Sequence record: PV805633.1
DNA from: a phage
Length of the DNA: 64,000 nucleotides
Reading direction: 5' to 3' (one strand)
Shown here: piece after piece, positions 4,495 through 56,952 of the stretch
How the letters are laid out: every line of letters begins with the position of its first letter
Numbering within the stretch: the first letter of the stretch is position 1
Notes under the pieces: generated by a model
What the model was told of the DNA's origin: nothing
The model's input: only the letters and a program-made list of their open reading frames with translations
Database searches by the model: none
Made by a program: the position numbers and the translations under genes

Positions 4495-4578
4495 AATTAC
4501 AGGTACTCTTATGTCAAACAGACAAATGGTAAGTCTATCTTATATGGACTGGACTTAAGTAAACTGGAACAAACTGCA

Positions 4579-25853: not shown

Positions 25854-28800
25854 TTAGTTTACTAAGTTCATCCAAGGGTTTAGGTTGTGAGCACGAAGCC
25901 CCTGACCAAAGCCCCATGAGTAATCCAGACTACCCTTAGCAGCAATACTAAAGATGTTGTCCTGAATAGGTAAGCCAACGTTACCAAACATGGTAGGAGT
26001 TGGAGCCAGCATCGCCATTGCTGCATGTACTGGGTTATTGCGAATCATGGACACTGCAACTTTTGCAGAACGAATCTTAAAGTTGTAGAACCACATCAAA
26101 CCAACACTTTCCATATACCCACGGAAACGACCAGGCAGACGGTCATAGTTAATGAACTCTTCGGTTACACGTCCCAGTGCTTCTTCACGAGTCTTACCTT
26201 TACGCTGAGTCAGTTCATCATAGATGATTGCTTTAGCGATAAAGTCAGAGTACTCAACCGTCTTCTGGATACCCTGGAACAGAGCAGTATCTTTAGTGAT
26301 AAGTGCATAACGACCAGCAGCACGTACAGACTTAGGTAACTTATCCGCCAGCTTTTCCATGTATTCGTGAAGTTTGCCTTCAGTAATCAGGATGTCATCA
26401 CGACCAATACCAGCATCTGCAATTGAAGAGAACTCACCAGCTTCTATCAGAGGCCAGATACTCATACGCTTATGGCTATCAGTAATGGACTGAATCTCAG
26501 CCTTAAGTTTACGAATCTGATTCGGGTTAGTAGCTGCACGTAATTCTGCTTCTGCATCTACCTGACGTAAACGAGATTTAAGGTACTGGTTAATCTCAGC
26601 AGTTTTCTGTGGAATGCTCTTAGCAATGTTCTTAACTGGCACACCACGAGCAACCATCTGGTAAAGGTTAGCCAAAAAGTTAACAACAGGTACGACTACT
26701 GACTTAACTACAATCAGAGTCTTAGCATCTTTAACTAAGTTTTGAACCAGGTTCTCACCACCCATTAAGTACTTATAGGCGCGGTTACCGGCTAAACCCA
26801 GAATAGCTTTTTTAAAAGTATTAAGCGTTTCCGGGGACCAACGAGAATTACCAGACCAAGCATCACCAATCGAAGCTGCACGATAGCCAAGTGCATCATT
26901 CAGCATGTCACGACGTACCCACAGTTCACCCTCACCAAACAGTTTTTCTGCTTTCCGTCGAGTTTCGCTGTTCATCAGCTTAAGAGCATCAGCAGTTACT
27001 GGGTCCAGCTTAGAACCAAAAAGGTTCACGTACTGGGACTTATTAGCAGCAGACATCTTAATGTCTTCCTTGTACATGCTATACAGGTTCTCAATCAGCA
27101 TATCATTGAAACGCTGAGCCTTAGCTTCTTCCACCTGACGTCCACGCCATACACCAATTGCACGGGCAAGATGATTTTCACCTTCAATATGCTTCAGCAT
27201 ATTAGGGTTAATTGATTGCTCATAAGCAACCACATCACCTTTAGCATTATATACAGGCAGCAGTGGTTCATTACCACGTTCACCACGAGCTAGTGCTTTA
27301 GCGATACGGTCTACAGAAGGCTTGTCAGTAATACGACCAGCTACCATGGAACCCATAGTAAAGCCTGTACCGAGGTCTACACCACCAGCAGTATTACGAA
27401 CGTTCTGTAGAATACCTTGTGAGAACGGAGCCTGTGCCTGTACTGGGGCAAAGTAGTAGCTACGTGCCAGACCTCGGTTAGCAGAGCTACCTTGATAAGT
27501 ACCCAGACGAACATAGGACTTCTCTATCAAATCACCAAACTCGCTATCTTCAGCAACAACCAGACTAACACCCTGTTTAGTCTCACTAGGGATATACCCT
27601 TTGTACTGGTTCAGGGTTGCACGCATATTAGATTTGGCTTTAGCCATTTCATCTTTACGCTGCCCAACCAGGTAAGAAGTAGCAAAGTCCATTCCCTCAA
27701 CTTCTGTCTGAGCCAGTGAAGATAACATCTCACGGTCGGACTTGTTCATTGCTTCCAGTGCATACAGGGTAATAAGTTTATCCAGTTGAGCTACATCTAC
27801 AATAGAACGAGTAGTCTTACGTTCACCCAGCATACGAGAGATTGCAGTAGCATTACGCAGCAAGTTTTTACCGACTGTGCCATTAATCATGTACTGAGCC
27901 AGTTGCTTAGATTTACGGTTAATCAGAGGCCAGTTACGACCAGCTTGTTTCTGCAAATCTGCTTCCAGCTTATTCACTTCACGGTCAACAATCTTCTGGT
28001 CTGAAAGCAGGTCACGAATTTCAGCCAGAGACATGGTGTCACGCAGGACAGCTAAGTCAGTTTTACCCATACCAGTGTACATTGCTTTCCACTCATCCTT
28101 AGTCAGCTTACGGCTGAACTTAGATGCGATAGTGGTAGGCAGGTGTTCACGGAACTGCTGACGGTCAGCCTGCACCTGTGCACGGACTGCTTTAATCAAA
28201 TCGTATACAGAAGCATTGCTCTTAGTACGACCGGTTAAATCATTAACCAGGTCATGGAAAGGTTGCCATACTTTACCCTGGTTCATTGCAACCATAACGC
28301 CTTCAGCTACGTTTGCACCATTCTTCTCTGTAGCAATAGCAGCCATTAGTTGTGCAGCATGAGCAGCACCTTTGACCAATGGGTTCTTGGTATTAGCTGC
28401 AACTTCACGAGCACTTTCTAAAACACGAGTAGACAGTACATCAATAGAGTCCACCAAATACTGGTTAGCACGGTCAATAGCATTACCACTAGGAGTAGCA
28501 ACGGAATCATAGAATGACTGTGCATTTAGGCTAGTCTGCATGATTGTTTGAGCCAGTGCATCCATACCTTCCTGTACGTTGGTAGCTTTGGTATCACCTG
28601 CTACACGAGCATTCAGACTAGCCATTGCAGCAGTACCAATGTTAGTCAGCATTGCATCAACGGTATTCCCAGATTTCTTATCTGCTTTCATAACAGGAAT
28701 GTTAGCCAGTACGCTACGTACCTCTTCACTTACCATTGCCAGACCAACAAAGGTAGGCAGTATTGAAGAACGACCCTGTGCATCAAACTCAATATTGTTA

Positions 28801-31800
28801 GCACCCATGATGGTATCGAACTTCTGCTGTGCATAGTAACGGTCAGCAGGGTTAGTACTATCTGGGTCAGTCATGAATGATTCAACAGTCAGGTTCTTAG
28901 TAACGTGTGCATAGTATTCCTGTGCACGAGAAAGAGCAGCCGGACTAATAGCAGCTTCAGTAGCGAGTGCAGCAACAATGTTAGTAAAGAGACGCTGTTC
29001 CTGCATATTCATGGTAAAGCCATGAGCCTGAACATCACGGGTTACTTTAGTTGCGTGCTTTTTCGCATCAGAGAACTTACCTTCACGGATTACTTGCTGT
29101 ACTGGTTCTGAACCAATGTAGTTAGTAATCAGCTTATCAAAGGTCTGTCCTAACTCTTCCAGACGGGTATTGTCACCATATGCTTTGTTATGGAACAAGG
29201 TAGTATCTTTGGCTACAGCAGCCGTAGGAGCCTGACCACGCATAACTACTGAAGAGTTAAACAGTAAGCCAGAGAACATATCATCTGCATTAGCAGGTGC
29301 TTTCTTGCGACCAAATACCAGACGTTTGATTGCTTCATATACTGACTGAACCATGGCTTTCAGTGCAGTGGTCTTCTTCTGCTTACTAATTAATTCACGG
29401 TTAGTTAAGCCCCAAGCCATGTACTCATTCAGTGCAGCAGCTTTAGCCATTGCTGGTTCAATAAAGCCGTTAGACAAGTGACCATTAATGGTATTAAGTG
29501 CATCAGCATATGCTTCACGTACTGCCGGAGATTCATCCATAACATCCAGATTACGGAACTGGTTCATCAAGTCTTCAATATTCTGGACTGCTTCATTAGG
29601 AGTACCCTCATAGTGAGCCAGTACAGATTCAAAAGTAGAAGCATGTACTAATTCATGAACCAGAGTCTCTAGGGAAGGGGTAACTAAGTAGATGGTTTTA
29701 TCATCAAAGTTAGTCCAGCCATACGCATTACCAGCTTCGGCAGCTTCAATATCTTCCGGTGCTGGACGAGTAATGTTCTTCTCAATAGCATAGGCATCCA
29801 GTTGAGCAGGAGTACCGTAAACAACTTTGTAGTCTTTAGCAGCAAGGGATTTCTGTATCTCTTTCAATACTGCTTGCTGTTCTGGAGACATCTCTTTAGC
29901 CAGCTTGGTAATAGCAGTATTAGACAATAGACGTACACCAGACTTAAGTACACGACCAACTTGTTCCATTGCTGGCACTTCTTTAGTAGGTACTTCTTTC
30001 ACTGGATCTGCTTTAGCAGCACGTACTGCATCACGACGCTTATTTAATTCAGCATCAAACAGTTCGTTCAGCTTAGCTACTTGCTGGTCTACAGTCAGTC
30101 CCTCAAGAGAAATTTTACCGTTGTTCACATAAGGAGCACCTACAGCAGCCATCTGGTCAACAGTGGTCTGTACCTGGTTCATTACTTTGTGGCGAATATC
30201 CACACTTAAAGCAATGTTACGCAGGTTACGCTCAATAAGGTTAACACCGGAATTCTTAATCATATCAATCTTATACTGCCTGTCTCCCTCAACGCGACTG
30301 ATATGAGAAAGCTGTTCAAAATCTAAAGCGGAACGGGCAATGTCATCAATTGTCTTATCTGACAACTTATCAAAGTCTACATTCTTCAAGAACTCAGAGA
30401 AGGATTCATATACAGCCTTGATAGGATTCCCCTGCCAGGAAGTGTATACAGCCTCGTTTGCTTTACGACTTGCATCAGTGATGTCACTAATACCAATGTT
30501 CATACCATCAAAGATTTTCAGGGTATTCTTCGGAGCACCTTTCATAGTAGAAAGGGTCTGCATCATCATGCCATCACCAGTACCGATGGTCATAAATGGA
30601 ATACCTGCAACACCTGCTTGTGAAGGAGCATAGATGCTCATTGGCACACGCATACGGTCATCTAAGTTGGTAGCCAGTACTTGGTTAGCAACGTCAGTAC
30701 TCTCACTGCCAGCAAGGTAGAAAGTCTGTGAGCCAGTCTCAATCATTGGAGCCAATGGAGATAATGATTCCTGGATTTCATTCAGTTCTTTCTGTGTTAA
30801 GAAATCACCCTTCTTCCAGGTTGGGTCTTTTTCTTTTTCTGCTAGCTTAGCCTGTACTGCTTGCTGGAACATATCCTGCAATACCAGGGACTGAATCTGA
30901 GTAGCCTTCTGCAAGTTCTCAGTAGAGTACATCAGACCTTCACCAACAGTATTACGGATACCAGTACGCATTGGTTCAACGAACAAATGGAGCATATTCT
31001 CTTGTAAGTTCTTCAGAGCATTACCGGATACGGTAAATTTCTGAGGGTCTAACTTACCAGTCAGAGCACCATCTACTTCCTTAATAAATAACTTACCCTT
31101 ACGCTTAGCTGGAATCTTACCGGTCAGTGCTTCCATAGAAGTAAGGAAAGTATCCAGCATAGCCTGAGCATCTGCCTCAGACGCAGCCTCCTTACCAAAC
31201 ATTGCCATAGCCGGGGAAATGCTAGGGTCAGCAGCACGTGCTTGCAGAACGTCGCTGAAGCGTTCGTAGATGGTGTCAGTAATTGCACTGACCATCTTGC
31301 CAGCAATACCACGAGCACCAGAACCATAGATGGTAATGGTCAGAGGGTTCTTAGCGATACCACGTTTCAGGTCCAGAGTACCATCTTCATTCAGGTTAAA
31401 GTCTTTAATGAACAGGTCCATTAACTTCTGGAGATGATTTATCTGGTTCATAACTGGAACGTTGTTACGGTAAGTAGTACGTAACTCATTCAGTGCTTGT
31501 TGTAGACCATTGGTAGATGCTTCATACAAGTCAACATTATCGTCGATAGAACAATGTTCATTCATCGTTTTACCAGCACGACCGAAAAACAAACCACCTT
31601 TAGCAGTGTTCTTAATCCAGTCTGGGGTGAACTTACCACCAGTCATTAATACCATTGCATTGATTGGGCCGTTGGTTACACCATCAGCTTCAACGTACAG
31701 AGGGGTAGTAAAATTAGCACGGTCATCACTGTTCAGGTAACGGGCATATTCCATCAGAGCCATGAGAGCCACGAAGGATTTGTTATCACCCAGAGAGGTT

Positions 31801-34800
31801 TTCAGAATATCTACTGCATCAGTAGGTAAGTAGCCAGACTTATCAAACTCGACCATCATATCAACAGCAGGTTTCAGATTACCTTCCAGGGCTTTGGTCA
31901 GATTTTCAGACATAGCTTCACGGGACATTTTATGTACCTTGATGCCCAATGCCTGAGCCAGTCCTAGCTGGAAGTCAGAGAACGCTTGGCTGTTTTCATT
32001 ACTCAAGTCGATAGTAGAGAAGGTTGGCAGAATTGCTTCACGAACCAGTTTACTGGATTGTGGGTTATTCTTACCAAGCATCTGCATACGACCTACACGG
32101 GTCATGTTGTAACCGTAGTGGATAGGTGTATCCAGTCCATCCTCTTGTTCTTTTAGCTGATTAATTAAACCAAACAAGGAATCATATGCCATAGACACAG
32201 ACAGGTTTTTACCTTCCAGAGATTTGGCAGTGTTTTCATTCAGCAAATCAGGATTAAGAGAACCAGCACCCATCAGTTCCAGAATGCCGTCTCGACCTAA
32301 TGCTTCATAGAAATTAACCATCGGCATGTGTACACGGAACTCCGTAGCCTGTTCAGCTTTCAGAGCAGCTTTCTGTTCTGGGGTATTCCTAACCGCAGGG
32401 TTACGTAACTGAGTTTGAGCCACAGAAGGAATGTCGTCACCGAAGTACGTTTTCTCTTCCGGGTTTACCAAAACAGCTTCTTCAATTGCTGTAAGGAAAT
32501 TATTAATAGGGTCTTTATCAGCCAACTTATTAATAGTGTACAAACCAATAGTCTTATTAGAGTCCGGGTCAATCTCAGACACATCCAGCATAGTCTCAGT
32601 AACTGCACCCATCTCGATGAGGGAAGACAGAATCTCTGTAGCCATTGCCACTGGAATACCCTTGGTATAACCCAGTGGTGCATTAGGGTTACGGTTTAAA
32701 CCCCAGTAGGATTCAATCTTTTGAGCCAGTGAGTTAGTAGCCTCAATCAGAGTCTGGGCATTATCAAACTCAGCCAGAATACTTTCTGGTAACAGAGATG
32801 CATCTACACCAGTAATAGCAGCTACGTCTTTCATGTCTTTAATGGCAGCATTCTGTGTAGCAGTCAGTCGCCATTGCAGACCGGCAAGTACAGCAGTCTC
32901 TAACAACTGGTCATTGAACTTAAAGGTATCCCCGTCTTTCTCTACGATGTTAAGTAACTTACCACCTACCCAACGGTTAGCCTCAGTACCTTCTGCAAAA
33001 CGTTTACCAACATTTTTATTAGCAAGGAACTTAGCCAGTCGTTCAGACAGAGTAGCCTTCAGAGTTTCCCCAAAGTCCATCAAGTCCTGATAACGTTCTA
33101 ACACATCACCTGCGAGAACGTTATTTTCTTTTTGAGTGAACGCTTCAAAGCGAGCAGCAGAAGACAGTGCTTTCTTGATATCAGCCAAAGGAGATTCAGA
33201 GCCAATGGTACGGGACTTAGGTTCTTCCGGTAAGGTAAATGCTTTCAGGAACTGGTTCGGTGTCTTCTCATTGTTATAGACAGGGAACACTGCTTCCATT
33301 CCAGAAAGGGGTTTGCCACCCACTGTATAATCTGCTTTCAGCTGAGCCAGTGATACTTCATCCTTCTCCACGTTGTTAGTGTTACGACCAGAGGTATCTA
33401 CACCAACCAGTATCTGTGCATTATTAGCTTCAACGAAAGACTGAACAGTATTGAATTGTTCAGCAGTCAGCTTCTGATTATCAAACAGTTGCAGAGATAC
33501 GAATGGTTGTTCACTACCTTTATAGAAGGTAGAGCGAATAGCACCTGTATCCAGAGACATATCACGATAACCATCGTGACCAAATACATCGGACAGGCTG
33601 ATATGGTCGCCATTAGAACCAACCACAGTACCATCAGCAAACAGCCATGGACTCTCCCTACGATCACCATACTTATTAAGAGTTTCCTGTGAAATAGTAT
33701 TTTCTTTCACATAAGCATCTCTCTCAGATTCAGTAGGTTGTTCGACGGTATCCTCATTAGTGGGGGTAGCCTCATCTACAACCGGGCTAGTCTTTTCAGA
33801 CTTAGGTACTTTCTCTTCCTGTACAGGTGTAACTTCTGGCTGGGAGAATGTATTACGTACATAGTTCATAAAATCATTACGTGCTTGAGAAGGAGAAGAC
33901 CATACTTCCCGTGTGCTACGTAAACTAAAGATTCGACCTTCAGGAGTCATTACGTAAGGTACATTTGTTTCACCGTACTTAAATGAAGTGAGCACGTCTG
34001 ACTTACCAGTAACAGTGCTTTCCCCTGGAATGACAATAGTCTTACCACCAGTAGAAGGAACAGCACGAACACCCTCAATATCCTTACCAAGAGAAATATA
34101 CTCTTTACCGTTGTAATCAAAGTACTGACCTATCTGCATATAGGTAGCTTGTTGCTTACCAGTAAACTCAGCAGTTTTCATCTCCGGGCCATTAGGTACA
34201 GACGTACTTTCAGACTTAGGCTTAGATACTTTCTCTGGTTCTGACTTAGACTCTACAGTGTTAGGAGCAGTTTTATTGTTTACCACTGGTTTAGCTTTAG
34301 ATTGTACAGTAGTAGTGTCCTCTTGCACTGGTGCAGGGGTTTCATCAACCTGATTCACTGGTTCATTAGTCTGTTGAGACTGAGTGGCATTAAGACCACC
34401 TTGACGGAACTCTTTAACTACCTGGGCAGCTGGCTTGTTCAGACGTGAATCCAACGAGGTAACTTTCACATGAGAAACATTAAGCTCCGGGTAAGCCGTA
34501 GCAAGTGCGTTAGCAATATCAGCTACGGTCTTAGCTTCCAGCGCTACTTGCTGGGCAAACTTAACAGACTTGGTATCATAAGGATTGACACCGAGGCCAG
34601 TACGACTACGTACCCATTCACGGGTAGGCGTGAGAGCCTGATAATGAACAGACTTATTCTTATCCGCATTCCCCGAAATCAGATGCTCATTCAACGCTCC
34701 GACCTTATTCTGCATGTGCTGGGCGAACTTCATAAAATCGCTCAGATAAGCGGAGGCCAAATCGAAGTTACCAGAGTTATACGCAGAACGAATGCGTTTC

Positions 34801-37100
34801 GCATGTTGCAACGCAGAGTACTGTCCTTCATTAGAACGAGACTCGTCGGTTTTAATCTGTTTACTAACGATGTCTTGACGACGTAAGCCCAGTTCTTCTG
34901 CTTTAGCATCATACTCACGTGCACCCTGTAATAGAGCAGCAGCTGATTGCAGGGCAGCACGTTGACGATTATTCAGTGTAATCTTACCTTCACTCGCATG
35001 CTTCAGAACCATGTTCACTGAATCTGCATCCAGTACTTCTGGAGACATATCAGCAGCCATAGCAATGTTGTTTGCTTGGGCTTGGTTAGCTTCTTCAGTA
35101 GCTTTCAGTTTACCTGCTTCAGCCTGTTCCTGAATCATAGAATGGATGGCACGGAATGCACGAAGTACTTTAGGGGTATTCTGTATGTTAGCCATCAGGC
35201 CGGAGAACTGGTCTACGATTGCAGCAGCAGGAGAACCTTGTTCCAGATTAGCCAGAGCACCTGGGTCACGGTTAATGAAGCTATCCATAGACATGATGTT
35301 GTCATACATCTGGATTGCAGCTTCCATTTGAACGTTAGGGTCTTCAGCAGTATTAACCAGGTCAGCCATCTTCTGAATAGCTTCCACACGGTTAGTGGAA
35401 CCAGAAACAGCTTCACGGATTACTGGGCTGGCTTGTTCCAATTCTACTGGGTCAAACTTCATTGCCTGGGTTAAGTCAGCAGCATACTGGGTAGCAGCAG
35501 CCTTCTCTTCTGGAGTGATGTCCATTGCATCTACTGCTTCCTGTACAGTTGCTTGTGCTTGCTCTGCTTGAGCAGCAGCTTCCTGTGCAGCAGCATTAAC
35601 CGTAGCATCAGCTACAGGGGATGCTTGTTCATTACGCTTAGCAACTTCTTCACCACGTTGAACCAGGATGTTAGTAAGAGGGGATGCAGCTTTAGCTAAT
35701 GTTTTACCAACCAGAGAAGCACCTGCCAGAGTAGTACGAAGAGCGGGGCCAGCAGCAGCACCGGCAGCTTTAACAGTTGCACCTGGAGCTTGAGCAACCC
35801 CAGCACTACCGAAGCCATAGAGTGCACCAAGACCCGCTTGCTCACCGACACCTTTGAGGGTATCTCGGGATGCATCAACATTTTCCTTGATTGCACGGTT
35901 CTGTGCGAACTGACCAAAGCCTGATTGAGTACCCTCTTCAAAAGTCTGAGCACCAAGGTTAGTAAGGGCTGCCCCAGCAGAACCAACCCTCATGGGGTTA
36001 AGTTCAAACTTAGATACTAACGGACCCATAGCAGCAGCAACTGGAGCAGTTAAGCCAGCAGCAATGATACCTGTTTCGGATGCAGTCTGACGACGTGCTT
36101 CATCAGGAGATAAACCATCAGCAATATGTTGTTGGTAAACAGGAGACTTACTTGCCAGTTCTGGATGGGACATCTTCATGATTTCAGAAGCAGTCTGTTG
36201 GTATGCACCACCAGCTTCCATACCACCGATTGCAATAGCAGGTGCAGCAACACGACCAGTAGACAATGCAACCTGTGCAGGACGTGAACCTAACCCAGCA
36301 GCTAAGGTAATACCCTTAACAGCTTTATCACCACCTACCATTACTTTACCGAGTGCAGATACACCACGGATAAGAGGACCACCAGTAAAGAGGGAACCAA
36401 CACCTTCACTCAGTCCATCTGAGGCAGCCATACCATTATCAAGTGTATTAGCAACAGAGTCGAAAGCGTCACGACCAATGCGAGACAGGGAGGCAACCAA
36501 ATCGCTCTCCCCATTTTTGATGTCCTGTTCATAGAGTTTCTGGTTCTTTTGAGCAGAAATCTGGTTCTGATTCTGAACAACTTTACGGGTAGCATTCAGT
36601 GCATCAGACTGTAGACTATGCACGCCTTCATTCAACCAATCCATCCCGGAAGCAATGGTTGCCCCGGCATTATCATTGACCAGACCTGCGCCAAGAGCAG
36701 CAATGCCCCCAAGGGTATTAGCAACACCAAGACCAACACCAGAAAGAGTATCGCCAAATGCTTCTGCGTTAGTACGCTGTTTAGATAAGTCCTGACGTAC
36801 AGCATCCGCAGCATTAGCTCGGCTATTAAGAATCTGTAAACCTTGCTCATTACCGTACTTATTAATGATTTCTAAAGGGGAGGCTTGAGTGAAATCTGCT
36901 TGAAGTGAACCTGGTTCGAATGCACCGATTCCAAGATTACCTACTCGTCCAGTCTGGAGATTGTAAGCATTCTCTGGGGTTAATTGGAAAGGGTTTTGCC
37001 CTTGTGCAGCTTGCTTCTGAGCGGTTGCAGTAGAGACATCGACTTGCTTAGCATTAGTGATGCTGTCTGCGAAACCTGCCAGACGGTCAAATGTTGACAT
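25854..37100 (-). CDS. giant virion-encapsidated RNA polymerase-like protein (N4 gp50-like), ~3748 aa
   Basis: Single uninterrupted 11.2-kb ORF; AGGAAA SD before ATG at 37100 (track starts at upstream TTG 37118); size and position match the N4-type vRNAP. Confidence 0.8.
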   Translation of the reverse strand: MSTFDRLAGFADSITNAKQVDVSTATAQKQAAQGQNPFQLTPENAYNLQTGRVGNLGIGAFEPGSLQADFTQASPLEIINKYGNEQGLQILNSRANAADAVRQDLSKQRTNAEAFGDTLSGVGLGVANTLGGIAALGAGLVNDNAGATIASGMDWLNEGVHSLQSDALNATRKVVQNQNQISAQKNQKLYEQDIKNGESDLVASLSRIGRDAFDSVANTLDNGMAASDGLSEGVGSLFTGGPLIRGVSALGKVMVGGDKAVKGITLAAGLGSRPAQVALSTGRVAAPAIAIGGMEAGGAYQQTASEIMKMSHPELASKSPVYQQHIADGLSPDEARRQTASETGIIAAGLTAPVAAAMGPLVSKFELNPMRVGSAGAALTNLGAQTFEEGTQSGFGQFAQNRAIKENVDASRDTLKGVGEQAGLGALYGFGSAGVAQAPGATVKAAGAAAGPALRTTLAGASLVGKTLAKAASPLTNILVQRGEEVAKRNEQASPVADATVNAAAQEAAAQAEQAQATVQEAVDAMDITPEEKAAATQYAADLTQAMKFDPVELEQASPVIREAVSGSTNRVEAIQKMADLVNTAEDPNVQMEAAIQMYDNIMSMDSFINRDPGALANLEQGSPAAAIVDQFSGLMANIQNTPKVLRAFRAIHSMIQEQAEAGKLKATEEANQAQANNIAMAADMSPEVLDADSVNMVLKHASEGKITLNNRQRAALQSAAALLQGAREYDAKAEELGLRRQDIVSKQIKTDESRSNEGQYSALQHAKRIRSAYNSGNFDLASAYLSDFMKFAQHMQNKVGALNEHLISGNADKNKSVHYQALTPTREWVRSRTGLGVNPYDTKSVKFAQQVALEAKTVADIANALATAYPELNVSHVKVTSLDSRLNKPAAQVVKEFRQGGLNATQSQQTNEPVNQVDETPAPVQEDTTTVQSKAKPVVNNKTAPNTVESKSEPEKVSKPKSESTSVPNGPEMKTAEFTGKQQATYMQIGQYFDYNGKEYISLGKDIEGVRAVPSTGGKTIVIPGESTVTGKSDVLTSFKYGETNVPYVMTPEGRIFSLRSTREVWSSPSQARNDFMNYVRNTFSQPEVTPVQEEKVPKSEKTSPVVDEATPTNEDTVEQPTESERDAYVKENTISQETLNKYGDRRESPWLFADGTVVGSNGDHISLSDVFGHDGYRDMSLDTGAIRSTFYKGSEQPFVSLQLFDNQKLTAEQFNTVQSFVEANNAQILVGVDTSGRNTNNVEKDEVSLAQLKADYTVGGKPLSGMEAVFPVYNNEKTPNQFLKAFTLPEEPKSRTIGSESPLADIKKALSSAARFEAFTQKENNVLAGDVLERYQDLMDFGETLKATLSERLAKFLANKNVGKRFAEGTEANRWVGGKLLNIVEKDGDTFKFNDQLLETAVLAGLQWRLTATQNAAIKDMKDVAAITGVDASLLPESILAEFDNAQTLIEATNSLAQKIESYWGLNRNPNAPLGYTKGIPVAMATEILSSLIEMGAVTETMLDVSEIDPDSNKTIGLYTINKLADKDPINNFLTAIEEAVLVNPEEKTYFGDDIPSVAQTQLRNPAVRNTPEQKAALKAEQATEFRVHMPMVNFYEALGRDGILELMGAGSLNPDLLNENTAKSLEGKNLSVSMAYDSLFGLINQLKEQEDGLDTPIHYGYNMTRVGRMQMLGKNNPQSSKLVREAILPTFSTIDLSNENSQAFSDFQLGLAQALGIKVHKMSREAMSENLTKALEGNLKPAVDMMVEFDKSGYLPTDAVDILKTSLGDNKSFVALMALMEYARYLNSDDRANFTTPLYVEADGVTNGPINAMVLMTGGKFTPDWIKNTAKGGLFFGRAGKTMNEHCSIDDNVDLYEASTNGLQQALNELRTTYRNNVPVMNQINHLQKLMDLFIKDFNLNEDGTLDLKRGIAKNPLTITIYGSGARGIAGKMVSAITDTIYERFSDVLQARAADPSISPAMAMFGKEAASEADAQAMLDTFLTSMEALTGKIPAKRKGKLFIKEVDGALTGKLDPQKFTVSGNALKNLQENMLHLFVEPMRTGIRNTVGEGLMYSTENLQKATQIQSLVLQDMFQQAVQAKLAEKEKDPTWKKGDFLTQKELNEIQESLSPLAPMIETGSQTFYLAGSESTDVANQVLATNLDDRMRVPMSIYAPSQAGVAGIPFMTIGTGDGMMMQTLSTMKGAPKNTLKIFDGMNIGISDITDASRKANEAVYTSWQGNPIKAVYESFSEFLKNVDFDKLSDKTIDDIARSALDFEQLSHISRVEGDRQYKIDMIKNSGVNLIERNLRNIALSVDIRHKVMNQVQTTVDQMAAVGAPYVNNGKISLEGLTVDQQVAKLNELFDAELNKRRDAVRAAKADPVKEVPTKEVPAMEQVGRVLKSGVRLLSNTAITKLAKEMSPEQQAVLKEIQKSLAAKDYKVVYGTPAQLDAYAIEKNITRPAPEDIEAAEAGNAYGWTNFDDKTIYLVTPSLETLVHELVHASTFESVLAHYEGTPNEAVQNIEDLMNQFRNLDVMDESPAVREAYADALNTINGHLSNGFIEPAMAKAAALNEYMAWGLTNRELISKQKKTTALKAMVQSVYEAIKRLVFGRKKAPANADDMFSGLLFNSSVVMRGQAPTAAVAKDTTLFHNKAYGDNTRLEELGQTFDKLITNYIGSEPVQQVIREGKFSDAKKHATKVTRDVQAHGFTMNMQEQRLFTNIVAALATEAAISPAALSRAQEYYAHVTKNLTVESFMTDPDSTNPADRYYAQQKFDTIMGANNIEFDAQGRSSILPTFVGLAMVSEEVRSVLANIPVMKADKKSGNTVDAMLTNIGTAAMASLNARVAGDTKATNVQEGMDALAQTIMQTSLNAQSFYDSVATPSGNAIDRANQYLVDSIDVLSTRVLESAREVAANTKNPLVKGAAHAAQLMAAIATEKNGANVAEGVMVAMNQGKVWQPFHDLVNDLTGRTKSNASVYDLIKAVRAQVQADRQQFREHLPTTIASKFSRKLTKDEWKAMYTGMGKTDLAVLRDTMSLAEIRDLLSDQKIVDREVNKLEADLQKQAGRNWPLINRKSKQLAQYMINGTVGKNLLRNATAISRMLGERKTTRSIVDVAQLDKLITLYALEAMNKSDREMLSSLAQTEVEGMDFATSYLVGQRKDEMAKAKSNMRATLNQYKGYIPSETKQGVSLVVAEDSEFGDLIEKSYVRLGTYQGSSANRGLARSYYFAPVQAQAPFSQGILQNVRNTAGGVDLGTGFTMGSMVAGRITDKPSVDRIAKALARGERGNEPLLPVYNAKGDVVAYEQSINPNMLKHIEGENHLARAIGVWRGRQVEEAKAQRFNDMLIENLYSMYKEDIKMSAANKSQYVNLFGSKLDPVTADALKLMNSETRRKAEKLFGEGELWVRRDMLNDALGYRAASIGDAWSGNSRWSPETLNTFKKAILGLAGNRAYKYLMGGENLVQNLVKDAKTLIVVKSVVVPVVNFLANLYQMVARGVPVKNIAKSIPQKTAEINQYLKSRLRQVDAEAELRAATNPNQIRKLKAEIQSITDSHKRMSIWPLIEAGEFSSIADAGIGRDDILITEGKLHEYMEKLADKLPKSVRAAGRYALITKDTALFQGIQKTVEYSDFIAKAIIYDELTQRKGKTREEALGRVTEEFINYDRLPGRFRGYMESVGLMWFYNFKIRSAKVAVSMIRNNPVHAAMAMLAPTPTMFGNVGLPIQDNIFSIAAKGSLDYSWGFGQGLRAHNLNPWMNLVN

Positions 37101-37164
37101 AGCATGTTTCCTGTTCAAACTTATATCGTATATAGGTAACCTACTCTACAGTAAGCCAGTGTAA

Positions 37165-37190
37165 GAAAAAAGCCCCGTAGGGCTTTTATT
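37165..37190 (-). terminator. terminator-like hairpin between gp51-like gene and vRNAP gene
   Basis: AGCCC/GGGCT stem flanked by an A-tract and a T-tract on the + strand. Confidence 0.4.
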
Positions 37191-37203
37191 AGTATGAAGT
37201 ATT

Positions 37204-39158
37204 TTAAGGCATTTTCACATACCCAGGTATGCCTTGGGCTTGGCGTATATACCGTATAGCACGCTCCTGGTTTTCTTTCTCAGCCTCCCGATCTACGGAA
37301 GCCTGTGATCGAAAGTTACGAGGAGCCAGGTTTTGCGGATCAGCCTGTACCTGCCCCTGAGCATTTTTAAGCATTGCAGCAGCTCTAGCAACAGCCTCCT
37401 GTCGTGCAGGTAACAGTGCAGTAAGTGCAGTCTGACCTGTAGCAATCTTATTTGGGTGTTTGACAGTGCAGCTACGGCAGCATCATATGCAGTCTGTGCT
37501 GCCTGAATATTCTGCATAGCCTGAGCACGACCAAGGTTACGTACACTTGCTTCAAGGGGTTCACCACGTTTTAACCCCTCAATCATTTGGTCTACCTGAC
37601 GGTCATTAAGTCGCAAGCCATTACCGGCTTCTGGGGTTTGCCCTATAGTTAGATAATCAATAAGACGTCCTGTATTACTTTCCGGTACGTTAGTCATTGC
37701 ACGTTGAACAACAACACCTGCCATAGCAGGAGATACATTAGCACGCTGAGCAATATCATTGATACGAGCCACAACCCATTGTTTATCTGCCCCCTTAAAG
37801 TCACCCTCTAGTAATCTGTTAGCAACTTCCCCAACAGTAGAAGTGTCATTTAAGGCAGGTAAATAATCAGGAGCAATACTTCCAGCATTGTCCTCCATAG
37901 AACGAGTACCAATCATACCGGTAGCCAGAGTAGATACTGCCTGATTACCTTGGTTATTCTGAACCATAGCTAGTGGGTCAGCCCCTACTTCAGCTTGGGC
38001 AATAACAGGTTTCATCTCTTCCCAAGTCATATCCTTATAAGCACCTGGAGTAGAGTTAGGCAGAGCAGCCCAAGTATCTTTAAGGTTACCGTTCTTACGG
38101 GCCTCGAAGATAGCCCTACCAATCTTATCCTGGTTCTCAGGAGAAAGAGGCTGGCTTTGCCAATCTGGACCAAGAACTTTAGGAGCGAAGTCTAGCAGAG
38201 TAGCTTGGTTAATCTGGAATGCACCAACAGGAGAAGCACCCTGCTTCGACTTCATACTATCCTGATGCTTAATTACATCACCAATACTCATTTGAGTAAT
38301 AGGAGTAGATGTACCAGCAAACTGGTAAGTAACATCATAAGGAGAACCCTGACGAGTACCAGCAGTACCTGGGGCAGACGTAGCACCAACATTGTTACCG
38401 TAAACACCCGGATATGCTCGTGCAAGCATTTCCTGCAAACGTGCCTGTGCAACCGGAGACAGATGCTTACTATAAGATTCTGCCAGAATACGGGCATCGT
38501 CAGCATTCTCAGCACCACGAGTAATCAGTGCCATTACCCCCGTAGCAGCCTGACTATCAGCATCATTACGTTGAGCAACACCTAAATCAAAACGATTCTG
38601 TGCCTGATTAATAGCCTGACCACCCTGACCTTGAAGACGACTCAGCATGTCCAATTGCTGGTCAGCAGGGAGTGCAGACAATGCATCACGGGTCTGACTT
38701 AATGCAGCATTAATACGGTTCTGGTCACCCGACTGATAAGCCTCAGACAGCAAACGAATAGCAGGGGAAGCATTATCTAATGCAGTGTTAGTATCCCGTA
38801 AACGATCAAAGTTATAAGTATTGTAGTCATTGGTTCCCTGCTGACCTTGTTGAGTCAACAGTGTACCTGCTCGCTCATCAAGGTTTTGGAGGGTACGCTG
38901 GTTTATCAATGAAGGGTCAACCCCCTGAAACAGTGCACCAGATGCCAAAGCATTGCGGTACTCAGTAGGGTCTTGGTACTGCATAGCATTCATCATGACG
39001 GCATTGCCAGCCTCCTGCTTGGCAGCGTTCTGGAAATTACCCAGTGCATCACTTAAGCCGGAGGTGGCGTTACCAATCATGCTACCAAATGTGCGAATGC
39101 TGTCACCAACTCCAGAGAAGTTAGGTGCATCAACATTTCTCCACGTTATCTGAGCCAT
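37204..39158 (-). CDS. virion protein (N4 gp51-like), Gln/Ala-rich; reading frame interrupted by a 1-nt indel near 37451-37453
   Basis: 621-aa track ORF ends in R/L-rich out-of-frame sequence; alternative frame gives a coherent C-terminus ending ...GIPGYVKMP at 37204; AGGAAACC SD before ATG 39158. Confidence 0.65.
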
Positions 39159-39170
39159 GATGGTTTCCTA

Positions 39171-39635
39171 TTAACGAGTTAATTTATTAGCTGCAATGTA
39201 AGCATCAGCCGAAGACTGGTCACGGTTCTCTGCTGTAGCACGACTACGAGCACGGTCTTCCAGTGCAGTGTTATAAGACTTAATCTGATTATTCAGGTTA
39301 GTGTTAGTAACACTCTTAGTAAAGTTCAACTGGTCTTTGGCTAACTTGTTAGCCTGGAAACCACTATAGATACCTGCTAAGGAACCAAGTGCACCGAGTC
39401 CTAGCTGGAAGGTAGGAATGTTCATTCCCAACTGATTAGCTGAACCAGATAAGAAAGAGGTGGGCGTAGTTAATCCTGTACCTGCATTCATACCAATAGC
39501 TGCACCCGGATTGTAGTTCATAGCTGGGGTATTAAAGTTCTGATTGTTATTAGACATCCAAGACATAGCAGCTGGCTGTGGGGTTTGGTTGCCTGTTAAG
39601 AATGACAAATCCATGGGGATTCTCCTGTTAAACAA
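39171..39635 (-). CDS. virion protein (154 aa), Gly/Asn-rich
   Basis: ORF track; tight spacing within the late operon. Confidence 0.6.
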   Translation of the reverse strand: MFNRRIPMDLSFLTGNQTPQPAAMSWMSNNNQNFNTPAMNYNPGAAIGMNAGTGLTTPTSFLSGSANQLGMNIPTFQLGLGALGSLAGIYSGFQANKLAKDQLNFTKSVTNTNLNNQIKSYNTALEDRARSRATAENRDQSSADAYIAANKLTR

Positions 39636-42291
39636 GGTCAGTATTAAGAGTCATATCAGAGTAGCTGCCAACCATGTTTAAGGACATGTCAGCTATATCC
39701 GAACCAGTCATAAGAGTACGTGAGAGGAAAGAATCCAACGACTCCATTGACACAAATTGCATAGGGTCAATTACACCCTGCCCAGCAGTACCAAACATTT
39801 CTTCATACTGCTTATTGATTGCCATCATATCAGTATTGTACTGCTGCATTACATTCTCTGCTTTCTGAATAGTAGCAGCCGTAGATGCATTAATATACTG
39901 ACTAATGCCGTTACCTACTGAACTAGTAAGCTGCATGATGTTTTGAGCATTCATCATTTCACTAGCTAAGGTAGATAAGGATGTACCAGTAGACATAGCA
40001 GTACCAACATTCATAGCCACCATTGAAGCAACAGCAGCAATGATAAAGCCTAGCTTATCACCAAATAGTGAAGTAGATACTTTAGTGATAATAGATACCA
40101 GAATCATTGCAGCAATGGCGTTTGCTACAGCACCTACTATTACAGCAGCTAATCCAACAAAGCCAAGTGATGCACCAACTGCACCATATGCCCCAAGAAT
40201 ACCTGCACCACCTGCACTACCAGCACCCATAGTAAATACGGATATAACGACAGCAACTACAACAACCACAATCTTAAAGGCAGAGGACTGATACCACTTT
40301 TTCTTAACCTTTTTATATGAGTTCATTACTAAGTAGGAACAAGCAGTAGACAGTTGAGTACTACGAGTCAGTGACATTGAACGGTAGATGTTAGTGTGTA
40401 GCGGAATAATGAATCCACTCTCCTCTGCATCACCCATCGCCTCAGCAACATCAATATTTACTGACTTATTTTTATATACCCTGTTGCTATGATGAAGGCC
40501 CAATACCCTAAGTTTACGGTAGGTGTTATTACCATCCTGCCAAAGCAACTCATATTCTTGCATAGAGTAAAACGTAGGAGTAACTTCTAATCTTTTAGTC
40601 GAACCAGAGTTACCAGCAGTACGTATGTTCTTACGGGTAAGAGTTATATCTCCTGCATATCTGGCTCGTAGCTGTCCTTGCTTAGCACCAGACCACGCTT
40701 TACCTGAGTGGGTAGTTTCAAATACGTAGTTCCAACTAATAGTCATGTCATACTTATACTGCTTACTACTGTGTACCCTAAACTCTCGCTTAGGTATGAC
40801 GGGGTATTCTGGCAGAGGTGGAGGTGTTCCAACAGTTTGACCTTCCTGCCTGTTCCACCATTCTACATACTCATCGACTGCATCATTTGCTGCCTGATAG
40901 CCTGCAATCACTGCTTCCAGTGTAGGGTAGGTTGGATCAGGTGGGAATGCTTCAGTAGCCATCTGAAAGAAACGGTAGATGTATTCCTTAGCAGTATCCT
41001 CTGGAGTATTTAGGGATACACCGAATGTGCCATAGATGTATTGAATATCACCTATGTCGTCATTCTTCTTAAGCTCAGTCACTACTTTATTAAGCTTACC
41101 ACCAGTAGCTTTATAGAGTGCCTTCTCACAGTGGGGGTAGATTGGGTCATTCTCTACCCATTGTTTATCATTCCTGATTGGAATGAATGGATAGAATCGG
41201 TTATCAGTAGCTTCAGTATCAAACAGGGAATCAAGTGCAACGTTACCTGAGTTCTGCTTATAGATAAGCATCTTAGGTGTACCAACAGCAGTCATCTCAG
41301 TATCAGTACTAGTAGTCTGGGATGAGTACTTACGAACCAGTGTCTCTGTAGTTGTAGTGATTGTATCTGTGCGAGTAACACCACCACCTAAATCAACTAC
41401 ATTGGTAGTTACAGTAGTACTGGATTGAACCTCACCAAACTTTGTATGAGTCATTACCCTGTCGGATACAACCACAGTTACATCATCAGGTTTCTCAGTG
41501 AACCCTCTACGGTAAACCTTAACGTAAGAGTTCCAGCTATCCACACTTGGTTCAGTAACAGTATTGTCTTCATCCGGTCTACCATCAGAGTAAACAGAAT
41601 GAGTCTGTATAGTCTTAGTAAGATTTGTTGTGTTAGCCGTCGTATCACTTGAGATGGTAGTCCATAACAGAGTAGACGGTAAGTCATCTTCGCTGTTATA
41701 GACAGTAGTCGGACCTACTACCGGTGGATTGGTAGCCGGGGACTTATAGAAAGTGTAATCAGCATAGAGATACAAAGCACCTGGTTCAAAGTTAGTAGGT
41801 GTGAATGTAATGGGGGAACCTCCATCTAAGGAGGTCATAGTGATTACATTGGTATCTTCATCAATGTCTACATCGAATCGTTCCATGATTCGACTTGGGG
41901 CATTCTCATAAAGATACTGGTCACACCATTGCTCAAAGTCAGCAAAGCCAATCTCTGCTGCCTGAACATAGACAGATTCTCCAGCAGGTGGAGTAATTTG
42001 ACCCTCTATAACAGTAGGGTCAATCTTAGCCAGTACACCTAACGAAGAACCTGCCATACCAACTTCTGAATCATAGTGGTTCTTGCTCCAGCTAGAGAAC
42101 AGTCGCATACGTATACCAGGCCCCTTCAGATAACTATCAGAGATAGTGTCTGCCATAGTGAATCCTGTATCAGCAACAATCTTACCAATGACTACAGTCT
42201 TCATATAGTTTGGACGTTTGTGTATATCCCCTGCCATGTTATAGACAGAGGATGCTACGTATACTTTGGTCTTACTACTGAATAAGCCCAT
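39628..42291 (-). CDS. large virion structural protein (887 aa) with Gly/Ala-rich hydrophobic segments
   Basis: ORF track; internal TM-like stretch VVVVVAVVISVFTMGAGSAGGAGILGAYGAVGASLGFVGLAAVIVGAVANAIAAMILV. Confidence 0.65.
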   Translation of the reverse strand: MGLFSSKTKVYVASSVYNMAGDIHKRPNYMKTVVIGKIVADTGFTMADTISDSYLKGPGIRMRLFSSWSKNHYDSEVGMAGSSLGVLAKIDPTVIEGQITPPAGESVYVQAAEIGFADFEQWCDQYLYENAPSRIMERFDVDIDEDTNVITMTSLDGGSPITFTPTNFEPGALYLYADYTFYKSPATNPPVVGPTTVYNSEDDLPSTLLWTTISSDTTANTTNLTKTIQTHSVYSDGRPDEDNTVTEPSVDSWNSYVKVYRRGFTEKPDDVTVVVSDRVMTHTKFGEVQSSTTVTTNVVDLGGGVTRTDTITTTTETLVRKYSSQTTSTDTEMTAVGTPKMLIYKQNSGNVALDSLFDTEATDNRFYPFIPIRNDKQWVENDPIYPHCEKALYKATGGKLNKVVTELKKNDDIGDIQYIYGTFGVSLNTPEDTAKEYIYRFFQMATEAFPPDPTYPTLEAVIAGYQAANDAVDEYVEWWNRQEGQTVGTPPPLPEYPVIPKREFRVHSSKQYKYDMTISWNYVFETTHSGKAWSGAKQGQLRARYAGDITLTRKNIRTAGNSGSTKRLEVTPTFYSMQEYELLWQDGNNTYRKLRVLGLHHSNRVYKNKSVNIDVAEAMGDAEESGFIIPLHTNIYRSMSLTRSTQLSTACSYLVMNSYKKVKKKWYQSSAFKIVVVVVAVVISVFTMGAGSAGGAGILGAYGAVGASLGFVGLAAVIVGAVANAIAAMILVSIITKVSTSLFGDKLGFIIAAVASMVAMNVGTAMSTGTSLSTLASEMMNAQNIMQLTSSVGNGISQYINASTAATIQKAENVMQQYNTDMMAINKQYEEMFGTAGQGVIDPMQFVSMESLDSFLSRTLMTGSDIADMSLNMVGSYSDMTLNTDLV

Positions 42292-49010: not shown

Positions 49011-49511
49011 CTATTCAAAAAGTTTACGGTCAGCCTGAATTTGCTTACCCAACTCAATTAGTTGGTTGTCACGGAGTCTAACAGTTGCCCGGAGTTCTTC
49101 AACCAAACGTCTGCCTTCTTCAAGACTGTTGTCGAGTCTGGCTGCATGGCTTGCAAGACTTCTGCACTCAAGGGTTCCGGCTTCGGCTTGACGTTTATAT
49201 ACCGATGCTCGTCTTTCAGACTGTTGCATCCGGCTGTCGTAATCACTGCTAACGCGAGCAAGCTCGCTTGCGTAATTACTCTCAGCCGTCTGCAACCGGG
49301 AAGTAAGTAACCCGACTTCATAACTATGGTTTCTTTGGAGAGCATTGTATTTGTCCTGTAGTTTTTGTGTTGCCTTCTGGTCTTCAACCTTTTGAGCATC
49401 CCATCTCTTTTGGACAGTAGACTGTCCATTGGAATTGCCCCAAAAGTAAATGGTGGCCCCGAGGACCACCACCAGAAGATAAGGCCAACCTTTAGAGATT
49501 AGCATCTTCAT
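49011..49511 (-). CDS. Rz-like i-spanin (N-terminal TM helix, coiled-coil periplasmic domain)
   Basis: [27 protein letters not shown] followed by a charged coiled-coil region; GGAGG 7 nt before ATG 49511; contains an embedded lipoprotein ORF. Confidence 0.65.
49058..49321 (-). CDS. Rz1-like o-spanin lipoprotein embedded within the Rz gene in another frame
   Basis: Signal peptide with lipobox-like ...[12 protein letters not shown], Pro-rich mature region; wholly inside Rz. Confidence 0.55.
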   Translation of the reverse strand: MKSGYLLPGCRRLRVITQASLLALAVITTAGCNSLKDEHRYINVKPKPEPLSAEVLQAMQPDSTTVLKKADVWLKNSGQLLDSVTTN

Positions 49512-50126
49512 TACATGCCTCCAGTGGTACATTACCGATTCGGTTAGCTACCCAACCATACGTAAAGTCTGGCATGTTCAATGAGGTGTAGTGGTTCAAT
49601 TGTTTAGCATCAAGCAACTTAATCATTACCTGACATGCTGCAACTTTGCCTCGTTTTTTCTGTAATGCTTTATATGCATTAACAGTACCTGCACCGACTT
49701 TACCATCAACTTGTATTTTAGGGTAGTCTTTGCCATCACGGGACATTTCATTAAGGGATTGCTGCAACCACTTAGCTGGTCTGGTTACACCGGTATTAAC
49801 ACCAGCATCAACCAGTTTGTGTGTTACAGCAGGAGATATATCAGCGAAGGCTACGAAGTTAGGCTTAATAACGTAGTCATCAATGTATATCTCAGCAGCC
49901 ATTTCTTTCGATAAACCCTTCATGGAACCATCCCAACCATACTCAGTAGCCAGAACTTCTTTGTGAGACTTAGCTACTGATTGGGTAATACCATGATTGG
50001 TTTCCCCACCTGGGTCACGAGGATTGTTTACGTACCCCCTTCCATATAGAACACTGCCCCCAGAATAGCAGCGATAACTCCTCCCACCGCACCCCCTTTT
50101 GCAGCAAGTTTCTGTTTAGCTTTCAT
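49492..50126 (-). CDS. GH108 N-acetylmuramidase endolysin with PG-binding domain and N-terminal Gly/Ala-rich TM (SAR-like) segment; frame broken at a C5 run (50035-50039)
   Basis: Frame 0 from ATG 50126 encodes MKAKQKLAAKGGAVGGVIAAILGAVFYMEGGT*; the -1 frame continues with the family motif GYVNNPRDPGGETNHGIT and the track ORF 49492-49923; combined length ~210 aa. Confidence 0.65.
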
Positions 50127-56252: not shown

Positions 56253-56674
56253 CCTCGTTGTTCAAATTTAGTTTCGGTAATTGAAATACTTCCATTAGCC
56301 AGGTCGTAATCAACAACCTCACCACAGATGCTTTCATACGTTTGCAGATACTCTGCTGCTTTAGCGTTAGCTTCAGGAGTATTCAAACCAGTGTGGTAAC
56401 GATAACCCACCCAGTTATGAAGTGCCGTCATTAGCGTGTCAGCTAAATCAACTTCCTGTTCTTCATCACCCGTAAGTACTGGGTGCTTAGCTTGATACGT
56501 TACGTTAAGTGCCTCGAAGTGTCGAGGTCTCATACACTGAATAGTATCAGGCCGTGGAGTGAAAATAGCACGAGGGTCTGAGTCGTCGTTCAGTCTACGT
56601 CGATTCCCAGAGTTATCAAACACATTTAGGATTTTAATAACATCATCCTGGAAAGGCTTCATGAACCCATCCAT
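56243..56674 (-). CDS. virion/tail-associated protein (143 aa); start uncertain
   Basis: ORF track; overlaps upstream 97-aa ORF by 16 nt; no SD close to the ATG. Confidence 0.45.
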   Translation of the reverse strand: MDGFMKPFQDDVIKILNVFDNSGNRRRLNDDSDPRAIFTPRPDTIQCMRPRHFEALNVTYQAKHPVLTGDEEQEVDLADTLMTALHNWVGYRYHTGLNTPEANAKAAEYLQTYESICGEVVDYDLANGSISITETKFEQRGWR

Positions 56675-56952
56675 GATATAAGGATATTGAACCTCAAGAG
56701 TAGGCTGAGTAAATTTGAGTAAGCATATTTGGATTGAAGAGGATAATCAGTACGTCCTTCCTTCATCTCTACAATGCAGCTATTTGTCTTAAGGGGGAAA
56801 CGACTATGAAGTCGTACCAGTCCTTCATTAATAGCTGCCAGTATCTCCGGCTTACTATCTGGTTCAATATCCAGTCTGTCATCCGTGACTGCACCAGTAC
56901 CTTTTAAGGTACTTAGTGCCAAGCCACGGTATACTTCCGATAGTTTCTGCAT
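56659..56952 (-). CDS. hypothetical protein (97 aa); C-terminal ~20 residues look out-of-frame
   Basis: ORF track; may form one gene with the 143-aa ORF. Confidence 0.4.
   Translation of the reverse strand: MQKLSEVYRGLALSTLKGTGAVTDDRLDIEPDSKPEILAAINEGLVRLHSRFPLKTNSCIVEMKEGRTDYPLQSKYAYSNLLSLLLRFNILISWMGS

Follow-up and report, generated by a model that had tools for sequence, protein, structure and literature searches.

The window, that is, the whole stretch of 64,000 nucleotides of phage DNA that was analysed (record PV805633.1), is a G7C-like phage genome (Gamaleyavirus, Schitoviridae). Its minus strand carries an ejection operon in the order gp52-gp51-gp50, the last of which encodes the virion RNA polymerase (vRNAP), and this arrangement was confirmed by the ORF list, by tblastn and by the annotation of G7C (Table 1). 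The vRNAP of phage PD205 matches positions 37100..25857 of the window entirely in frame -3 in a tblastn search, and the ATG at 37100 is the likely start of the polymerase gene. The gp51 homolog ends just upstream of this start, as had been noted in a preliminary description of the locus, with a gap of about 90-100 nt between the two genes. As given, the gp51 homolog is not a single uninterrupted ORF of about 644-654 aa and is split in two reading frames.

Megablast of positions 37150-39200 retrieved 69 phage records, the best of which were PD205 (91.9% identity) and G7C (86.5% identity). A near-identical GenBank record was not found for the window, the best genome being about 92-94% identical, and no protein on record is identical to the products of the 621-aa ORF described below, of gp52 or of gp53. 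Likewise, a lineage-specific 40-mer was absent from the metagenome and genome contigs searched. The PD205 record (ON922919.1) labels its 3584-aa virion RNA polymerase as "DNA polymerase", and the phage is named vB_EcoM (myovirus morphology), yet the taxonomy line gives Schitoviridae, the N4-like family; the label and the name are annotation errors.

Table 1. Positions of the gp51 locus and of the other interrupted genes in the window
Feature	Position	Strand	Remarks
Small early gene (homolog of PD205 CDS 65756-66136, 126 aa)	4511..~4890	plus	break at codon 5, 4524-4526
Virion RNA polymerase (gp50 homolog)	25854..37118	minus	3754-aa ORF, intact, one frame
gp51 homolog, C-terminal authentic part	37204..37452	minus	82 codons + stop; NKIATGQTALTALLPARQEAV...GIPGYVKMP*
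621-aa ORF, out-of-frame tail	37293..37452	minus	IRLLQVRLHLLHCYLHDRRLLLELLQCLKMLRGRYRLIRKTWLLVTFDHRLP + stop
Break site, A3 run (T3 on the plus strand)	37451..37453	minus	one base short relative to every relative
gp51 homolog, N-terminal authentic part	37453..39158	minus	codons 1-568 and the first two bases (CA) of codon 569
gp52 homolog (outer-membrane ejection protein in N4)	39171..39614	minus	intact; 147 aa, 93% identity, coverage 1.00
gp53 homolog	39628..42291	minus	ORF list, tblastn, G7C annotation
Endolysin gp61 (homolog of G7C gp61 and N4 N-acetylmuramidase, 211 aa)	49492..50126	minus	break at codon 30, ~50034-50035
gp67 homolog (N4 30-kDa virion protein, 236 aa)	56243..56952	minus	break at codon 79, ~56714-56718

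The gp51 homolog and the position of its frame break

The minus-strand ORF 39158..37293 encodes 621 aa, and its product is normal up to ...AAVAALSNTQ, after which it continues as IRLLQVRLHLLHCYLHDRRLLL..., an R/L-rich sequence. The neighbouring frame carries a 56-aa ORF (37204..37374) that ends in ...GIPGYVKMP*. Both the change of character within the 621-aa product and the continuation of the protein in the neighbouring frame as far as 37204 had been pointed out in the preliminary description, and they are borne out by the ORF list and the raw sequence. The R/L-rich tail of 52 aa, which starts with IRLLQVRLH..., is a translation artefact of a missing base. The authentic C-terminal segment instead runs NKIATGQ...GYVKMP and contains NFRSQASVDREAEK and AIRYIR.

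At the break, the upstream frame reads AAC ACC CAA ATA AGA and the continuing frame reads CCA AAT AAG ATT GCT; the latter is the -1 frame relative to the former, and they share an overlap of 187 nt. The T3 run named earlier as the site of the break was located accurately to the base. In the DNA alignment, the window has ACCCA-AATAAG where PD205, G7C and Bas96 have ACCCAGAATAAG, and when the alignment is phased by codon the gap falls on the third base of codon 569, about 1705 nt from the start of the gene. The missing base is G in all relatives (ACC CAG AAT AAG) and falls between 37453 and 37452 if it is the G of CAG. Either this G was lost, or this lineage carries the synonymous CAA AAT and its A4 run was shortened by one A. 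The span 39158..37204 measures 1955 nt, compared with 1956 nt for the gp51 gene of PD205. Insertion of one base after 37453 yields a single ORF of 651 aa that terminates at the TAA at 37206-37204; a protein of ~650 aa had been predicted from the addition of one base to the A run, and 651 aa is also the length of gp51 in PD205, the closest relative. The split is best attributed to the sequence rather than to the gp51 gene itself.

The repaired protein matches PHROG 6126 with an E-value of 4.8e-296 over residues 1-649 (profile positions 1-662 of 667), and its N-terminal 357 residues match PDB 11mn, the N4 "66 kDa protein" (residues 1-359), with an E-value of 3e-129. Pfam holds no family for the repaired 651-aa sequence. 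With PD205 gp51 as the tblastn query, residues 1-572 align to the window in one frame with 93% identity and residues 570-651 align with 93.9% identity. Judged from its sequence and from the gene order, the window protein is a clear member of the N4 gp51/PHROG 6126 family. The earlier assignment as a gp51-like virion gene is thus upheld by the PHROG 6126 and N4 66 kDa protein matches and by the gp53-gp52-gp51-vRNAP gene order, which is the same as in G7C. By its match to the N4 fragment, the protein may also possess the T7 gp15-like leg fold and assemble into the decameric channel described for that fragment (PMC13434306).

Conservation across the break and the recoding alternative

The break is private to this sequence. 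A 200-nt query centred on the break retrieved 49 GenBank records, in every one of which the span of the record equals the span of the query plus one (49/49). A pattern search of IMG/VR, in which the base was made optional, returned seven stretches, comprising four real gp51 homologs and three chance matches; all four homologs read ACCCAGAATAAG in a single frame, and the sole match without the base (19 nt) lies in an unrelated giant-virus MAG contig. The gp51 genes of PD205, G7C and Bas96 are single ORFs of 651 to 654 aa. The preliminary description had named homologs that end at the same point as the 621-aa ORF with the same R/L-rich tail as the finding that would speak against a frame break; a search for such homologs gave none, and the 52-aa tail has no match in a protein database of 5.8 billion clusters.

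The segment beyond the break is encoded in 68 phage records at a coverage of at least 80%, lying under annotated gp51 CDS in the matches listed, and the downstream frame contains no stop before the terminal TAA. In comparison with PD205, dN/dS is 0.097 after the break (about 82-83 codons) and 0.126 before it; in comparison with G7C, the corresponding values are 0.225 and 0.199. With dN/dS as low downstream as upstream, the segment past the break is still a coding sequence, under the same purifying selection as the part before it.

These data bear on the idea that -1 ribosomal frameshifting or transcriptional slippage joins the two frames to give full-length gp51 from the broken gene, which is highly improbable. 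In its favour are the -1 phase of the continuing frame and its overlap with the upstream frame, together with a CCCAAAT heptamer at the break site and, at 37368, an in-phase A_AAA tetramer. However, the heptamer lies in the wrong phase (phase 2), since the zero frame reads ACC CAA ATA, so that a -1 shift there would not allow any tRNA to re-pair. The 187-nt overlap holds no canonical in-phase X XXY YYZ heptamer, and slippage at 37368 would still place 28 residues of the conserved segment out of frame. Efficient transcriptional slippage needs runs of about 8 or more, for which the A3 run is too short. A stimulatory RNA structure downstream of the break was not detected, as the minimum free energy of -28.4 kcal/mol compares with a shuffle mean of -29.6 kcal/mol (z = +0.39), and 130 of 200 shuffled sequences fold at least as well. 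In addition, the two-frame arrangement occurs in none of the relatives (0/49 in GenBank, 0/4 in IMG/VR), which leaves nothing for selection on recoding to act on. Programmed -1 frameshifting was accordingly rejected on the grounds of the phase, the unremarkable RNA fold and the lack of conservation of the two frames.

Further one-base deletions and the origin of the break

All 80 annotated PD205 proteins were compared with the window by tblastn. This screen gave three frame switches, in gp51, gp61 and gp67, all of which are 1-nt deletions in the window and were confirmed by comparison with G7C and ST4. As a control among finished relatives, the PD205 proteins were searched against the G7C and ST4 genomes, and 0 frame switches were obtained, compared with 3 for the window. 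The preliminary description was silent on the cause of the gp51 break, to which the present analysis adds the recurrence of such a lesion in three other genes.

In the endolysin gene gp61, the relatives have GAA GGA GGG TAC or GAA GGG GGA TAC where the window has GAAGGGGGTAC (GGGGG), and the gene is divided into ORFs 50126..50028 (32 aa) and 49923..49492 (143 aa, starting at an internal ATG). In the gp67 homolog, which adjoins the large terminase gene, TAC TCC AAA/AGA TTT of the relatives corresponds to TAC T-C AAA TTT of the window, and the ORF pieces are 56952..56659 and 56674..56243. The third additional case is the small early gene, which the tblastn screen missed because only five codons precede its break. 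It begins ATG TCA AAC AGA CA-AAT GGT, with CAG AAT in ST4 and CAA AAT in PD205 at that place, and its upstream frame stops at 4556-4558. The early gene and gp51 thus share the same lesion context, CA[G/A]AAT to CAAAT. Since the A4 run of PD205 in the early gene is a natural state, undercalling of A4 as A3 is a plausible origin for the lesions in both of these genes. In all four genes the downstream frame is fully preserved, and normal purifying selection was found in the three that were tested (gp51, gp61 and gp67).

Outside of coding regions, several homopolymers of the window are one base short in comparison with two or three relatives, namely C3 to C2 at ~37, A6 to A5 at ~24816, T6 to T5 at ~25144 and T5 to T4 at ~59873. 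Altogether, lineage-specific 1-nt deletions number about 8-9, mostly shortened C, A, T or G runs, compared with only two lineage-specific 1-nt insertions (~24733 and ~24770), which is a small sample. This excess of deletions agrees with the breaks in the coding regions. Natural indels have the same bias and likewise favour homopolymers, so that the non-coding shortenings taken alone are weak evidence. In a homopolymer census scaled by length, the window has slightly fewer 6- and 7-mers than its relatives, in numbers too small to serve as evidence.

Two further observations were made near the left end of the window. At the start of a 61-aa gene at ~562 (homolog of PD205 69893-70078), the relatives have AGAAGAAATGAAAC and the window has AGAAGAG-TGAAAC, one base shorter; the gene apparently has a GTG start in the window and an ATG start in the relatives. 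Positions 57-93 contain a hairpin (GACCTCCCTATTGAAGGGAGGTC) followed by T13; no other homopolymer of the window exceeds 7. This element resembles an intrinsic terminator whose T tail is unusually long, and the T13 run could alternatively be a homopolymer of uncertain length.

With regard to the cause of the gp51 break, a deletion-biased consensus error, that is, an indel introduced by sequencing, basecalling or assembly next to a short homopolymer, is very probable. One base would have been dropped from the consensus beside the A3 run while the true gene is unbroken; at this site the phage DNA itself probably reads ACC CAG AAT AAG or its synonymous variant ACC CAA AAT AAG, and a normal gp51 of 651 aa is most probably encoded. 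This protein would be the periplasmic-tunnel ejection protein, which leaves the virion before the giant vRNAP. The absence of the base from this sequence alone, the effect of its repair and at least three further one-base deletions that interrupt conserved genes of the assembly are directly observed, and the technical cause is what we infer. It is favoured because three other conserved genes of the window carry a similar 1-nt lesion: simultaneous breaks in the endolysin, gp67, the ejection protein and the early gene are unlike a replicating phage genome and resemble a consensus with a few deletion errors. A phage in which endolysin, tail and ejection genes were all broken is unlikely to be viable. 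On the other hand, the vRNAP gene with its 11 kb, as well as about 50 other genes, came through the tblastn survey free of frame switches, and the assembly is therefore not badly error-ridden. As a counter-point, in the relatives the missing G has A's on either side rather than lying within a long homopolymer, and in gp67 the change is no more than CC to C; homopolymer undercalling thus explains the gp51 break only if the lineage has the synonymous CAA.

A genuine deletion, in which the base is truly absent from the phage or from its dominant genotype and a 621-aa gp51 is made with a 52-residue nonsense tail in place of the C-terminal 82 residues, is unlikely. Such a mutation would have arisen very recently, for example in a lysate or metagenome variant that is defective or hitch-hiking, or would be tolerated owing to a dispensable C-terminus. 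The break is unambiguous in the sequence as given, the missing base is outside any long homopolymer, and deposited sequences of phages Bp4 and U1G also have a fragmented gp51, although these may be errors too. Moreover, the 1-359 fragment of N4 gp51 still forms a decameric channel in vitro (PMC13434306), and the N-terminal 569 residues could therefore keep partial function. Against this, a genuine origin needs four independent inactivating frameshifts at once, including those at codon 30 of the endolysin and codon 79 of gp67, which a replicating phage would not plausibly carry. The frame beyond the break is without decay under normal purifying selection, and the lesion is shared by 0/49 GenBank and 0/4 IMG/VR relatives. 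The lost C-terminus is, furthermore, the segment conserved in 68 phage records, and in N4 it has been proposed to form part of an inner-membrane complex with the N-terminal domain of the vRNAP (PMC13434306). Essentiality of a gp51-type protein is presumed rather than derived from knockouts, since the study of phage DEV (PMC11445570) gives no knockout evidence for it, its knockouts being those of tail fibres.

Less probable still is a deletion that is both genuine and compatible with viability. In that case gp51 would act without its conserved C-terminal 82 residues, or a small full-length-like fraction would be produced by unprogrammed -1 slippage, for example at the A_AAA tetramer; the C-terminus would then be dispensable or needed only in sub-stoichiometric amounts for delivery of the genome and vRNAP. 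A real deletion would be mildly informative as a natural C-terminal truncation of an ejectosome component for which a C-terminal role has been proposed.

Annotation of the window and comparison with known systems

Under the preferred reading of a consensus error, the gp51 break is most likely technical, and its main consequence is for the quality of annotation. If left unflagged, the sequence would be annotated with a truncated gp51 ending in nonsense and an orphan 56-aa ORF, and the gp61 endolysin, gp67 and the early gene at 4511 would likewise appear as broken. All four genes are best regarded as intact, each with a probable one-base error in the consensus, and they should be flagged as such or as "frameshifted; internal indel" and not be read biologically. 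Given the pattern of four deletions, other short-ORF oddities of the window should first be checked against this deletion error mode.

The properties of N4 gp51 (644 aa) have been described recently (Nat Commun 2026, PMC13434306). In full virions the protein surrounds the portal, emptied particles lack it, and it makes channels in lipid bilayers. Residues 1-359 assemble into a decameric channel whose leg fold is like that of T7 gp15 (PDB 11mn; PMC13434306). The proposed model assigns N4 gp51 to the periplasmic tunnel of the ejectosome and places its C-terminus in an inner-membrane complex together with the N-terminal domain of the vRNAP (PMC13434306). The three-gene ejection operon that contains the vRNAP gene is conserved in 191 Schitoviridae genomes (PMC11445570). 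The gp51 homolog of the window has the same operon position as that of N4, a similar length after repair and strong N-terminal homology. In contrast to the window gene, which is split by a one-base gap, the N4 gene is a single ORF; N4 is an Enquatrovirus, whereas the best megablast matches of the window belong to Gamaleyavirus (G7C-like).

Pseudomonas phage DEV gp72 and T7 gp15 are periplasmic tunnel/core ejection proteins that share their role and the leg fold with N4 gp51 (PMC13434306), and their relationship to the gp51 of the window is taken from the literature and not from a sequence match obtained here. The source is inconsistent on the DEV counterparts, as it equates N4 gp51 and gp52 with DEV gp73 and gp72 "respectively" and elsewhere gives gp72 as the counterpart of gp51 (PMC13434306). 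The mapping used here is that of gp51 as the periplasmic tunnel, corresponding to DEV gp72.

The gp51 regions of ST4 (locus 1761-2334) and of PGN829.1 are each split into two aligned pieces over about 2.65 kb. An HNH homing endonuclease is annotated in this region in PGN829.1, which indicates that some relatives carry a mobile-element insertion at or just upstream of the 5' end of gp51.

Among the closer relatives, gp51 of G7C (YP_004782181.1, 654 aa), whose presence in the virion has been confirmed, and that of PD205 (UVK80524.1, 651 aa) are encoded by intact single ORFs, in contrast to the window gene. Nucleotide identity between these phages and the window is 86-92% over the gene and its flanks, and the order of the neighbouring genes is identical. 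In Bp4 (NC_024142.2), gp51 is represented by three adjacent or overlapping CDS with breaks near locus coordinates 1206 and 1466, and in U1G (NC_070872.1) by two adjacent or overlapping CDS with a break near locus coordinate 588; both genomes are collinear apart from this. No break point is common to Bp4, U1G and the window, and fragmentation of gp51 is therefore not a conserved feature. The splits in Bp4 and U1G are probably sequence errors in those RefSeq records, and with gp51 fragmented in these two phages as well, breaks of the kind seen in the window are familiar in databases.
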